Shown here: in pieces, positions 28,632 to 31,172 of the stretch
Layout: every line of letters starts with the position of its first letter
Position numbering within the stretch: position 1 is the first letter of the stretch
Source: Deltaproteobacteria bacterium
GTDB lineage: Bacteria > Myxococcota_A > Polyangia > JAAYKL01
Direction: 5' to 3'
Length of the DNA: 64,000 nt
Assembly (NCBI GenBank): GCA_016936575.1
Contig: JAFGXQ010000013.1
Span: 2,835-66,834 of the forward strand
Position numbers and translations under genes: made by a program
The notes under the pieces: generated by a model
Told to the model about the DNA's origin: nothing
The model's database searches: none
Seen by the model: the letters and a program-made list of their open reading frames with translations, nothing else

Positions 28632-29639
28632 TTACAAAAACGCCTGTAACCGATCATCCAACTCTGAAAACGAAAATAGTTGGTCGTACGGAAAAATTCC
28701 CGCCATTGCACTCGACACCACTCTGATACCGGTTTCTTCAAAAATTGAGGTCGGATTCAGCCCTCCGATAATAATGGCGCCCGCTCTGTCGGGAGAAACC
28801 GGAAAGTCAAAAATGCTCTGCCCCGGATTTCCAAGGCACATCAGACTGCCCAACCCGATTTCCTGAAGCCGTTGCGCCACAGACCGAATAATGCTGACGC
28901 TCTCCCCGGGAAACTCGCGAAAGCTTGCGCCGATTAAGCCATTTCCGCTGGTAATCGCTCCGATGTAATCGGCCATTCCGGCGCGAATAAATATTTCAAG
29001 CGGGTCAATACTGGTGCCGTCGTATGAAATCAATTCTACGAAACGTCGCGCTTTTCCTTTGCGAATTTCAAGCAAGCCCCCGAATCTGGAAGTTACCGGA
29101 ATTCCGCGACGCTGAAGAATACCATTGAACGTTATTGAACAAACGGTACCCAACCCGACATTTCCATCCGGAATAATGGTACCGAAACATGAACTTCCCG
29201 GACCAAGCAACGTCATCATTCTTCCCATGGCGTATCCCTTGGAAAATACCTTCGCTATCAATTTGCGGCGATAGACCGTGAATTCTTTTATCGGAACGAT
29301 CGAAATATTGACCACTACCGTACCCTGTCGGGTAATTGGATCAAAATCCATGCGGTACGCCATCGTATCTATTTTTCCAGATAGAAATCCCACCCGTTCG
29401 TGCACTCGCGATGATTCAGATTCCCGCACTCCGGCTTCTTTAATCATGCGTCCTTTTCGCCCCCAATTTTCAGTAAACCCGTTCTCGTCGAATTCCTGTA
29501 GATACAGCCGTACTGTGCGTTCGCTGATGTCAAACCCTTGAGCAGTTAATGTGTTTGTTATTCTCGTGCTTGAGAGAGGTACTTGGCTATTGGTCAGTAC
29601 ATCAAGAATGGCAAGCCGCTTTTTTTCCTTTTTGTCCAT
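28632..29639 (-). CDS. NrpR-like (DUF128) nitrogen-regulatory transcriptional repressor family protein
   Basis: 335 aa. N-terminal winged HTH (KKRLAILDVL...STRITNTLTAQGFDISERTVRLYLQEFDENG) followed by two repeated domains, consistent with the NrpR architecture. Divergent from gdhA. Confidence 0.55.
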   Translation of the reverse strand: MDKKEKKRLAILDVLTNSQVPLSSTRITNTLTAQGFDISERTVRLYLQEFDENGFTENWGRKGRMIKEAGVRESESSRVHERVGFLSGKIDTMAYRMDFDPITRQGTVVVNISIVPIKEFTVYRRKLIAKVFSKGYAMGRMMTLLGPGSSCFGTIIPDGNVGLGTVCSITFNGILQRRGIPVTSRFGGLLEIRKGKARRFVELISYDGTSIDPLEIFIRAGMADYIGAITSGNGLIGASFREFPGESVSIIRSVAQRLQEIGLGSLMCLGNPGQSIFDFPVSPDRAGAIIIGGLNPTSIFEETGIRVVSSAMAGIFPYDQLFSFSELDDRLQAFL

Positions 29640-29773
29640 TCATATATCCTTTTACGGCAAAAATGCCGAAATTAAAATCCATCCATCCGGGACACACCCG
29701 TTGATTCAATTACGCAACATCGAATATGAACCATATATCAACGGTAATTTATTGCCAGAAAAAGTGTTTAAAA

Positions 29774-29791
29774 ATTCCGATATTCCGGAAT
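29774..29791. promoter_or_regulatory. TTCC/GGAA inverted repeat ATTCCG-N6-CGGAAT in the nrpR-like/gdhA divergent intergenic region
   Basis: Seen directly; contains the TTCCGGAA palindrome. The NrpR operator consensus (GGAA-N6-TTCC) is established knowledge; this site only loosely matches. Confidence 0.25.
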
Positions 29792-29834
29792 CTTTATTTC
29801 TACCCAGACAACCGAAAAATGCAAAGGAGCAGCT

Positions 29835-31172
29835 ATGAGTTACGTCGAAAAAGTATGGCAAAAGGTTCAACACCGAAACGCAGGAGAACCGGAATTTCTC
29901 CAGGCAGTGAAAGAAGTATTTGATTCTCTCGCCCCGGTAATCGAAAGAAACCCGCAATATGAACAACAGAATATTCTGGAGAGAATTGTAGAACCGGAAC
30001 GCCAACTGATTTTCAGAGTCCCCTGGACAGACGACCAAGGACGCATCCACGTCAACAGAGGATTTCGATTTGAGTTCAACAGTGCGTTGGGTCCGTACAA
30101 AGGAGGGCTTCGGTTTCACCCTACCGTAAATCAAAGTATTTTGAAGTTTCTCGCATTTGAACAGATTTTCAAAAACTCACTGACTACACTGGCCATGGGC
30201 GGAGGAAAAGGCGGTTCGGATTTCGACCCGAAGGGAAAATCCGACATGGAGGTGATGCGGTTCTGTCAGTCATTCATGACCGAATTGTCCAAGCACATCG
30301 GTGCGAATACCGACGTTCCAGCGGGAGACATCGGCGTGGGTGGGCGCGAAATCGGATTCATGTTCGGCCAATACAAAAGATTGAAAAATGAATTCACTGG
30401 CGTCTTAACCGGAAAGGGGCTGGGATGGGGCGGGTCTCTGATTCGACCGGAGGCTACCGGATACGGCGCAGTTTACTTCGCACAGGAAATGCTGAAAACC
30501 CGAAATGATTCTCTTGAAGGGTGCGTATGTGCGGTATCCGGGTCGGGTAACGTGGCCCAATATACCGTGGAAAAATTACTGTCTCTCGGTGCAAAACCCG
30601 TCACCCTCTCCGATTCTGCGGGCACCATTTACGACCCGGACGGCATCACCACCGAAAAACTGGAGTGGGTCATGGATTTAAAAAATATCCGCCGGGGAAG
30701 AATTTCGGAATATGCCAAAGAGTTTAAGGTCGATTACTTGGAAAACCAACGACCTTGGGCCATTCAATGCGACTGTGCATTCCCCAGCGCCACACAAAAC
30801 GAAATCAACAAAGATGATGCGGCACTCCTCATTAAGAATGGATGCCGCGTGGTAAGCGAAGGCGCTAATATGCCGAGCACGCCGGAAGCGGCTGAACTAT
30901 TTATCGAAAATAAAATCCTGTACGGTCCGGGCAAAGCGGCAAACGCCGGGGGCGTGGCGACTTCCGGACTGGAAATGAGTCAGAACTCCATGCGTCTCCG
31001 TTGGGAGCGAGATGAAGTAGATGCCAAACTCAGACAAATCATGATAAATATCCACGAGGCCGCATACAATGCATCAAAAGAATATGGTGAACCGGGCAAC
31101 TACGTACTCGGCGCCAACATCGCCGGCTTCCTGAAGGTCGCAGACGCCATGATCGATCAGGGACTGGTATAA
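29835..31172 (+). CDS. gdhA: NADP-specific glutamate dehydrogenase
   Basis: 445 aa. Glu/Leu/Phe/Val dehydrogenase active-site region [19 protein letters not shown]. Dinucleotide-binding domain. Confidence 0.9.

Follow-up and report, generated by a model that had tools for sequence, protein, structure and literature searches.

A stretch of 64,000 nucleotides from a Deltaproteobacteria bacterium (contig JAFGXQ010000013.1, positions 2,835 to 66,834), referred to here as the window, encodes an NrpR-family regulator, nrpR, that is divergent from gdhA, the gene for an NADP-specific glutamate dehydrogenase. Two conserved palindromes, O1 and O2, lie in the spacer between both genes, and we consider it probable that this bacterial NrpR binds them and represses gdhA as well as itself, and that 2-oxoglutarate releases it, in a substrate-induced loop. 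Established directly were the domain architecture of the protein, the pairing of the genes, and how far the palindromes are conserved, which spacings they favor and where they lie. The elements concerned are the following.

28632 to 29639, minus strand: nrpR, 335 amino acids, NrpR family with a single NrpR regulatory domain (NRD), NrpRI-like; called from the open reading frame (ORF), Pfam, the structure 3NEK and an AlphaFold model.
29421 to 29612, minus strand: winged helix-turn-helix (wHTH) DNA-binding domain, nrpR residues 10–73 (PF08461).
28677 to 29393, minus strand: the single NRD, presumed to sense the effector, nrpR residues 83–321 (PF01995).
29835 to 31172, plus strand: gdhA, 445 amino acids, NADP-specific glutamate dehydrogenase, the presumed regulated gene (PF02812, PF00208, NF006929).
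29655 to 29668, without strand: O1, 14-bp palindrome CGGCAAAAATGCCG, putative operator of the N2 type, 16 bp from the nrpR start codon.
29742 to 29757, without strand: O2, 16-bp palindrome CGGTAATTTATTGCCA, putative operator of the N4 type (GGYA-N6-TGCC), 78 bp before the gdhA ATG.
29701 to 29706, plus strand: TTGATT, inferred candidate −35 element of the gdhA promoter.

The initial annotation, made from the letters alone, had described the 335-residue product as an NrpR with a winged helix-turn-helix and two DUF128 domains, and had placed its gene divergently to a glutamate dehydrogenase gene across a 195-bp spacer. These coordinates were borne out (spacer 29640–29834), and profile searches recovered both the winged-helix family PF08461 (E 2.2e-14) and PF01995, formerly DUF128 (E 2.3e-73; 246.8 bits against a cut-off of 25). 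The wHTH and NRD parts of the predicted architecture thus stood, but the second DUF128 domain did not, since PF01995 was matched only once, with model positions 1–236 of 238 covered. In the AlphaFold model (predicted local distance difference test, pLDDT, 81), helices at residues 3–16, 24–33 and 40–52 are followed by a β-hairpin, which is the form of a wHTH. The best solved relative by sequence was 3NEK (E 1.7e-21), the single-domain protein MJ0159. Foldseek aligned the model NRD with 3NEK at a target-normalised template modeling (TM) score of 0.86–0.87, a root-mean-square deviation of 2.6–2.8 Å and approximately 24% identity, and wHTH repressors were found among the lower matches of the model. 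The two NRDs have sequence blocks in common, such as TVCSITFNGI in the nrpR product and TICAVTLDGI in MJ0159, and Cys167 of the NRD did not vary among 20 bacterial homologues. In Methanococcus maripaludis, a cysteine in the corresponding position is reported to matter for the 2-oxoglutarate response. An identical protein, from a metagenome-assembled genome (MAG), is already listed at NCBI as a ‘DUF128 domain-containing protein’. Taken together, the 335-aa ORF product is an NrpR-family regulator with a wHTH and one NRD, and tblastn detected no second NRD protein in the window.

The identity of the divergent gene as a glutamate dehydrogenase gene was likewise confirmed: its product carries both ELFV domains (PF02812 and PF00208) and scored 771.2 bits against the NCBIfam equivalog NF006929, for which the cut-off is 536. 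We then compared the surroundings of nrpR in 83 loci (80 genomes, two contigs with close homologues and the window), in which ORFs were called and clustered and the large clusters were named by Pfam and NCBIfam. The only gene common to all of these loci was nrpR. Its divergent upstream neighbor was a 546-aa protein with a Glu_synthase domain (PF01645) in 34–41 of the 83 loci, gdhA in 25–32 and a second nrpR paralogue in five. The gdhA partner predominated in Kiritimatiellales-type loci (16 of 18) and occurred also in those of Planctomycetota, Thermodesulfobacteriota and Syntrophaceae. One or the other of gdhA and the Glu_synthase-domain gene accompanied nrpR in approximately 59–73 loci from at least seven phyla, and both of these partner enzymes form glutamate and consume 2-oxoglutarate. 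Since the divergent nrpR–gdhA pairing recurs in around 30 of the 83 loci, from several phyla, it is not accidental. Control of nitrogen assimilation, by which the NrpR family is recognized, is represented here by this genomic association only. Two further neighbors recurred. One, in 25 loci, is a GltD/NfnB-like NADPH-dependent glutamate synthase, which scored 605 bits with TIGR01316 (cut-off 472); the other, encoded beside nrpR or gdhA in 24 loci, is a protein of approximately 890 aa with a PPDK_N domain.

Genes for NADPH supply were also seen in the company of gdhA. In five Kiritimatiellales-type loci (L009, L011 and L013–L015), an NfnA-like and GltD/NfnB-like pair lies downstream of gdhA, and a trio encoding NuoE-like, NuoF-like and GltD-fusion proteins lies by gdhA in L001 (1–3571) and L081 (1–3536). 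The place of that trio is taken in the window by a gene for a 653-aa SufS-like aminotransferase (31937–33898).

The DNA upstream of nrpR was analyzed by scanning 939 kb with the pattern GGCAA-Nn-TTGCC (at most one mismatch, n from 0 to 10), the motif density elsewhere in the same loci serving as background and internal control. Within 330 bp upstream of nrpR, there were 85 GGCAA-N2-TTGCC sites (72 of the 83 loci) and 75 GGCAA-N4-TTGCC sites (61 loci), which are 30 and 42 times as dense, respectively, as in the background; no other spacing was enriched more than approximately four-fold. Most N2 sites are located 25–75 bp from the nrpR start, and N4 sites 125–475 bp from it, on the side of the divergent gene (69 loci). 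Moreover, N4 sites were paired exactly 22 bp apart, center to center, in 28 loci, and other distances did not recur. There are two putative operator classes with different addresses, N2 at the promoter of nrpR itself and N4 at the divergent target, and the palindrome just upstream of nrpR is alike in unrelated phyla.

An alignment of 17 nrpR–gdhA spacers gave a consistent picture, with CGGCAAtATTGCCGATA conserved by nrpR, and CGGCA-N6-TGTC and CGGCAAtGAgTTGCmG conserved before the ribosome-binding site of gdhA. In the Kiritimatiellales-type spacers, the N4 pair is situated between that ribosome-binding site and a conserved TTGC-N17-TATAAG element, to which we assign a putative promoter function. 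A −10-like AATATT, 17 bp after a conserved CTTGA, is overlapped by O1 and would belong to a promoter there. The conserved palindrome can be written as (C/T)GGCA-N6-TGCC(G/A), that is, with 4-N6-4 geometry.

Both palindromes of the window were assessed with position matrices trained only on loci outside the window’s clade, which comprises four loci (the window, L001, L081 and L082). O1 obtained the highest N2 score in the 64 kb (19.9) and O2 the highest N4 score (20.9, with a runner-up at 17.0). O1 is, besides, the sole exact match to CGGCA-N4-TGCCG in the window and has an equivalent in 72 of the 83 loci, which in L001 reads CGGAA-AAAT-TACCG; O2 is kept in the other three members of the clade with N4 scores of 19.6–22.5. 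Both are invariant blocks of the spacer alignments, the O1 columns being invariant in alignments A2 and A4. We presume from these patterns that O1 is the site of nrpR autoregulation and O2 the main gdhA operator. Upstream of O2, the window, L001 and L081 share a conserved block, CCGTTGATT, and a weak −10-like hexamer 17–18 nt after TTGATT would put O2 at approximately +5 to +20; a consensus promoter scan did not report the pair formed by TTGATT and this hexamer.

Based on these results, we propose the following course of regulation. A NrpR oligomer would recognize palindromes built from the half-site CGG(C/A)A. It would bind the 14-bp form CGGCA-N4-TGCCG (O1) at the nrpR promoter and, in the window’s clade, also at sites of the PPDK_N-like gene and of a VOC-family gene described below, and the 16-bp form CGGYA-N6-TGCCR (O2) just downstream of the gdhA promoter, where half-sites 22 and 44 bp beyond O2, belonging to a TTCC/GGAA repeat, may assist. 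Bound NrpR would block transcription of gdhA and nrpR and, where gdhA is not the partner, the Glu_synthase-domain gene would be the repressed target. A build-up of 2-oxoglutarate would lead to its binding by the NRD and the departure of NrpR from DNA; NADP-dependent glutamate dehydrogenase (GDH) would then be made and convert 2-oxoglutarate and ammonium to glutamate, closing the loop. That NrpR binds the palindromes, that its binding represses and that 2-oxoglutarate is the signal are inferred, the last from the homology with archaeal NrpR and from the use of 2-oxoglutarate by both partner enzymes. The NrpR of methanogens represses nif and glnA at promoter operators and is released by 2-oxoglutarate under nitrogen limitation (PMC9765008, PMC4902934, PMC11957540).

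Comparison with the characterized archaeal systems revealed likenesses and differences. The archaeal NrpR operator is reportedly GGAA-N6-TTCC, and bacterial homologues of NrpR are also said to have been noted before. NrpR of M. maripaludis, which represses nif, glnA and glnK-amtB, combines a wHTH with PF01995 NRD sequence, as the protein described here does. The putative operator here, GGCA-N6-TGCC, has the same 4-N6-4 form as that of M. maripaludis, with one symmetric base changed from A to C, and both systems have more than one operator per promoter, with operators downstream of promoter elements. On the other hand, M. maripaludis NrpR carries two NRDs in a chain of approximately 540 aa, whereas the protein of the window has one NRD in 335 aa and lacks the two-NRD layout. 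The host here is bacterial, with a sigma-70-type promoter instead of the TATA/BRE promoter of M. maripaludis, and the partners are gdhA or a Glu_synthase-domain gene rather than nif and glnA. Further, an additional class of operator, its spacing shorter by 2 bp, stands at the regulator’s own gene, unlike in M. maripaludis. This putative operator on the nrpR promoter differs from the situation in methanogens, where nrpR was reported to be unresponsive to nitrogen supply (PMC9765008); the inducer of archaeal NrpR is 2-oxoglutarate (PMC9765008, PMC4902934).

With regard to domain content, the protein is closer to NrpRI of Methanosarcina mazei and M. acetivorans, which also consists of a wHTH and a single NRD, and several homologues carry the label ‘global nitrogen regulator NrpRI’ from JGI. 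NrpRI is the DNA-binding partner in Methanosarcina (bioRxiv 10.1101/2020.06.15.153874). Methanosarcina has in addition NrpRII, a second NRD protein devoid of the helix-turn-helix, of which the 64-kb window has no counterpart; some Dehalococcoidia loci have instead a second full-length nrpR paralogue (approximately 40% identity). The closest solved structure, MJ0159 of Methanocaldococcus jannaschii, is a stand-alone NRD without a DNA-binding domain.

The job proposed for NrpR, that of coupling glutamate synthesis to nitrogen and 2-oxoglutarate status, is performed at gdhA by Nac and NtrC in enterics, GlnR and TnrA in Firmicutes, AmtR in corynebacteria and NtcA in cyanobacteria. The folds and DNA motifs of these regulators are unrelated to those of NrpR, and none of them is known to carry an NRD.

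Several observations weigh against the proposed repression loop. Most loci have one nrpR only, so that one protein would have to read both N2 and N4, and one rigid dimer should not read both spacings. The loci were gathered through nrpR, and the link between motif and nrpR is therefore partly built in. Nor is the DNA pattern alone diagnostic, because a palindrome of like form, repeated with a 22-bp period, was also met in gut Bacteroidales-like contigs that lack nrpR. The promoter positions in the window are weak consensus matches, and no glnA, amtB, glnB or nif gene was found in the 64 kb. De-repression of a low-affinity GDH at high 2-oxoglutarate would be the opposite of the enteric paradigm. 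Finally, a literature search that covered few subscription papers found nothing on function, targets or operator of bacterial NrpR/DUF128.

The gut contigs emerged from a metagenome scan with the tandem-operator pattern, which yielded at least 120 loci (L083–L202 among the matches listed), mostly from human gut. Neither nrpR nor gdhA, Glu_synthase or PPDK_N genes were found in any of the 120 listed. These contain intergenic arrays of 2–6 copies of TGGCAAnnnnTTGCCA with a 22-bp period, among SusC/SusD, histidine-kinase and glycoside-hydrolase genes. The TGGCAAnnnnTTGCCA arrays seem to represent a family of palindromic repeats scattered over Bacteroidales-like genomes, which resembles NrpR operators in form only and, as this repeat swamped the scan, its matches were dismissed as a further NrpR regulon.

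It would also be conceivable that the protein binds these operators with a logic unlike that of archaeal NrpR, as an activator, or with glutamine, glutamate or the product of the PPDK_N-like enzyme as ligand. We regard this as unlikely. In some phyla, for example in L066, L067 and L072, an N2 site does lie upstream of a clear −35 element, an activator-like position; 24 loci link the PPDK_N/KaiC-like gene of unknown function with nrpR and gdhA; and identity to the solved archaeal NRD is only about 24%. However, O2 and the tandem N4 pairs are found between promoter-like elements and the start codon, the NRD blocks of MJ0159 are kept, Cys167 included, and both alternative targets take 2-oxoglutarate as a substrate.

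Another candidate operator was the TTCC/GGAA inverted repeat that the initial annotation had pointed to in the spacer, ATTCCG-N6-CGGAAT, likening it to the archaeal NrpR operator. The repeat is present, in the context given below.

29774 to 29791, without strand: repeat E, ATTCCG-ATATTC-CGGAAT, an everted TTCCG-N6-CGGAA that forms the inner half-sites of O3 and O4.
29764 to 29801, without strand: ‘O3’ GTGTTTAAAAATTCCG (29764–29779) and ‘O4’ CGGAATCTTTATTTCT (29786–29801), degenerate units of operator length in 22-bp register with O2, put forward as a hypothesis rather than a finding.

Repeat E holds TTCCGGAA, and its arms can be extended to 11 nt (29769–29779 and 29786–29796). A 6+6 inverted repeat with at most two mismatches matched six times in the window against 4.9 expected, which alone is not significant; the weight of repeat E comes from its conservation in the three closest relatives and from nothing else. 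It reads ATTCCG-GATTAT-CGGAAA in L081, ATTCCG-ATTTTC-GGGAAT in L001 and CTGCCG-CTGATT-CGGCAG in L082, and owing to this conservation within the clade we set aside a mere chance palindrome. In L082, both arms are altered symmetrically, with TGCCG/CGGCA, the half-site pair of O1 and O2, in place of TTCCG/CGGAA. The fourth half-site base also varies between C and A at bona fide sites within the clade, for example at O1 of L001 and in CGGAAAAAATTCCG, its site at the PPDK_N gene. On the other hand, the repeat is absent from the other 15 of the 17 gdhA-linked Kiritimatiellales-type spacers, and the window holds no exact match to the archaeal GGAA-N6-TTCC, the motif whose search had been suggested.

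When all loci were scanned for everted TKCCG-Nn-CGGMA, enrichment was observed at n = 6 only (11 loci, 22-fold), and outside the window’s clade the everted N6 invariably corresponded to the 6 bp that separate one complete N4 operator from the next in tandem, as in CGGCAATCGGTTGCCG-TGTTAA-CGGCAATAAGTTGCCA of L022. The register in the window agrees exactly: O2 (29742–29757), 6 bp, O3, which ends in TTCCG, 6 bp, and O4, which starts with CGGAA. Between O2 and the repeat lie 17 nt whose sequence is not conserved but whose length is constant in the window, L081 and L082, with a 22-nt insertion in L001. As full 16-mers, O3 and O4 scored −12.6 and −10.4 with the N4 matrix, within the top 2–3% of window positions, and their outer halves are degenerate. 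From these sequence features we suggest, with modest confidence, that repeat E is the junction of two decayed tandem operators, which may still aid cooperative binding.

That the repeat at 29774–29791 might itself be the main NrpR operator of gdhA appears quite improbable to us. In its favor, CGGAA/TTCCG belong to the same half-site family, CGGAA being used by L001 in O1 and in the site of the PPDK_N gene; all four clade members keep the repeat with symmetric substitutions (TGCCG/CGGCA in L082), and its 17-nt distance to O2 is fixed despite the unconserved sequence. Yet its half-sites point outward, opposite to those of O1, O2 and approximately 160 sites across phyla; it is missing from the same 15 gdhA-linked spacers; the full operators that it implies are the poorly scoring O3 and O4; and everted N6 elsewhere is the gap between complete tandem operators. 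Of the proposed NrpR-like operator, the palindrome geometry is borne out at O2, but not by the everted, clade-restricted repeat, and O1 and O2 had been overlooked. Judged by sequence, these two are the best-supported operators of the spacer, ahead of the repeat.

We hold it to be very unlikely that the repeat acts in RNA, as a hairpin or attenuator of the gdhA leader independent of NrpR. In the predicted leader it can form a hairpin with a stem of 6 bp and a loop of 6 nt, it is followed in the window by CTTTATTTCT and was flagged as terminator-like, and symmetric substitutions would keep a stem too. Nevertheless, the predicted stability of the gdhA leader did not exceed that of shuffled sequence (z = −0.34), L081, L082 and L001 have no U-rich tail, Rfam gave no match in 25600–32100, and no RNA function would account for the fixed 22-bp register with O2. 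An RNA leader or terminator element was accordingly rejected on the leader fold, the unconserved U-tail and the empty Rfam search.

Sigma-54 promoters have GG and GC doublets 10 nt apart and are directional, single-copy elements 12–24 bp before the transcription start. The idea that the GGCAA...TTGCC palindromes are such promoters, or sites of another factor that lie near nrpR by chance, is scarcely credible: TGGCA...TTGC does resemble −24/−12 elements and the same palindrome with a 22-bp period occurs in gut contigs without nrpR, but GG and GC are separated by 9 nt at N4 sites and by 7 nt at N2 sites instead of by 10 nt, the sites are two-fold symmetric, tandem and present at the promoter of nrpR whatever the neighboring gene, and nrpR is the one gene that all loci share. 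The sigma-54 reading of the GGCA...TGC sites was rejected on this spacing (9/7 nt), the symmetry and the 22-bp tandem arrangement.

The repression loop proposed for nrpR and gdhA may extend to two other genes of the window, each with an N2-type site upstream.

25927 to 28608, plus strand: PPDK_N-like gene, 893 amino acids (PF01326), with a KaiC/RecA-like fold without Walker A and a PPDK_N ATP-grasp.
25824 to 25837, without strand: N2-type site CGGCAAAATTACCG, 90 bp upstream of the PPDK_N-like gene; second-best N2-matrix score, 19.0.
31210 to 31620, minus strand: VOC/glyoxalase-family gene (PF00903), convergent with gdhA.
31737 to 31750, without strand: N2-type site CGGAATAATTGCCG, 117 bp upstream of the VOC/glyoxalase gene; fourth-best N2-matrix score, 12.0.

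Relatives of the PPDK_N-like gene are found in L001 (7046–9745), L081 (7077–9809) and, just downstream of nrpR, in L006–L019, and its association with nrpR and gdhA takes several gene orders across phyla. The site upstream of it has equivalents at the same gene in L001 (CGGAAAAAATTCCG) and L081 (TGGAAAAAATGCCG). In the Pontiella-type loci, the gene is on the same strand as nrpR and follows it after 40–50 bp, where it would be covered by O1, while in the window’s clade it is inverted and has an N2 site of its own. As either arrangement, co-directional under O1 or inverted with its own site, is expected if the gene is in the same regulon, we consider its membership of the NrpR regulon probable. 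In a model of the protein (pLDDT 81), the N-terminal part has a KaiC/RecA-like fold that lacks the Walker A motif GK[ST], and the central part is an ATP-grasp resembling the one in rifampin phosphotransferase (5HV3, E 4.5e-12); no solved relative was found by sequence. The database names ‘pyruvate, phosphate dikinase’ and ‘PEP/pyruvate-binding domain protein’ are probably misnomers.

The VOC gene also neighbors gdhA in L001 and L081, and the site upstream of it has equivalents at the same relative place in both (CGGAAATAATGCCG and TGGAAATTATGCCG, respectively), which makes its inclusion in the NrpR regulon possible. The listed ORF of 204 aa, with a GTG start at 31824, is probably too long, as the family models match from residue 1–5 of the frame that starts with the ATG at 31620. 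The third-best N2-matrix match (21115–21128) was rejected as a chance resemblance, being part of another repeated operator, TGGCCATATTG(C/T)CAA, which surrounds a small ORF next to an ArsP permease gene.

The regulator had been thought uncommon in bacteria, a view that did not hold. A search of 5.8 billion proteins found 2598 homologues of the nrpR product. The best 120 of them were all 322–371 aa long with the same two domains; all organism-labelled homologues were bacterial, most of these 120 having no label, and the named ones among the 120 came from Kiritimatiellales/Pontiellaceae, Verrucomicrobiota, Lentisphaerae and ‘Deltaproteobacteria’ MAGs. We also probed a one-genome-per-species collection with two peptide patterns and confirmed the matches, which yielded nrpR relatives on 394 stretches. 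The best 80 of these were all bacterial, with 50–82% identity over the full length, and belonged to Kiritimatiellota/Verrucomicrobiota, Thermodesulfobacteriota, Syntrophorhabdaceae, Syntrophus, Dehalococcoidia, Planctomycetota (Kuenenia, Pirellulales, Phycisphaerae and Sedimentisphaerales), Hydrogenedentota, FCPU426 and Firestonebacteria. For anaerobic lineages, ‘uncommon in bacteria’ is untenable.

The affinities of the genes in the window were not uniform. Its DnaK (dnaK, 9166–11199) was closest to those of Myxococcota, ‘Deltaproteobacteria’ and Polyangia MAGs (76–85%), on which ground an assignment of the organism to Kiritimatiellales, considered at first, was judged improbable and dropped, while outside the four-locus clade both NrpR (63–65%) and GdhA (75–82%) were closest to Kiritimatiellales. 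Because these affinities differ, the nrpR–gdhA module may have moved between phyla; the comparison suggests, but does not prove, that it was exchanged with its operators included.

A second full-length nrpR paralogue with approximately 36–42% identity adjoins the first, often in divergent orientation, in the Dehalococcoidia loci L020, L031, L041, L042, L050, L068 and L075, and also in L033, L048 and L058; in L048 and L058 it lies directly downstream of gdhA. By analogy with NrpRI/NrpRII, the paired paralogues could form a two-subunit arrangement.

The regulator family and its probable logic were already known, and annotation pipelines already label the protein as NrpR-like. What is new is the bacterial domain of life, the glutamate-synthesis targets, the operator layout in two classes and the conserved partner of unknown function. 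These results point to a widespread bacterial nitrogen control system that is apparently unstudied. More tentatively, and with slightly less than even confidence, we suggest that single-NRD NrpR is a global nitrogen/2-oxoglutarate regulator of many anaerobic phyla (PVC, Thermodesulfobacteriota, Chloroflexota, Planctomycetota including anammox bacteria, Hydrogenedentota and candidate phyla), wired to glutamate synthesis and to the KaiC-like/ATP-grasp protein and having an operator grammar in common with methanogens (CGG(C/A)A half-sites, a 16-bp palindrome and 22-bp tandem phasing).

Textbook nitrogen regulators come from a few aerobic or facultative models, and most anaerobic, uncultured or little-studied phyla are not covered by them. 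If the suggestion is true, a further class of bacterial nitrogen control would stand beside NtrBC/Nac, GlnR/TnrA, AmtR and NtcA, and one family with one DNA grammar would predict the switching of glutamate synthesis in Kiritimatiellota, syntrophs, Dehalococcoidia, and anammox and other Planctomycetota, with a regulon that could be read from the genome sequences themselves. A transcription factor would, as happens rarely, have been conserved together with its operator across the archaeal-bacterial divide, the metabolite-sensing repressor keeping its operator geometry in the passage between archaeal and bacterial transcription machineries, and a widespread 870-aa family of unknown function would gain a 2-oxoglutarate/glutamate context.

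Other features were noted elsewhere in the window. At 21090–21560, two copies of TGGCCATATTG(C/T)CAA flank a short stretch of the size of a regulator, with an ArsP-family permease gene (19920–21113, minus strand) and the next gene on either side; this pair looks like operators of a small local repressor unrelated to NrpR. The ORF at 21643–23751 (plus strand) encodes a protein of 702 aa without a Pfam domain, of which residues 413–670 match only the Ser-Asp repeats of staphylococcal MSCRAMM adhesins, and which is probably a low-complexity repeat protein. Sterol-type reductases are unusual in bacteria and known from some myxobacteria. The window encodes a sterol-reductase-like membrane protein of the ERG4/ERG24 family at 23770–25194 (minus strand; PF01222, E 1e-47), whose frame overlaps that of a short-chain dehydrogenase (24861–25742, minus strand).

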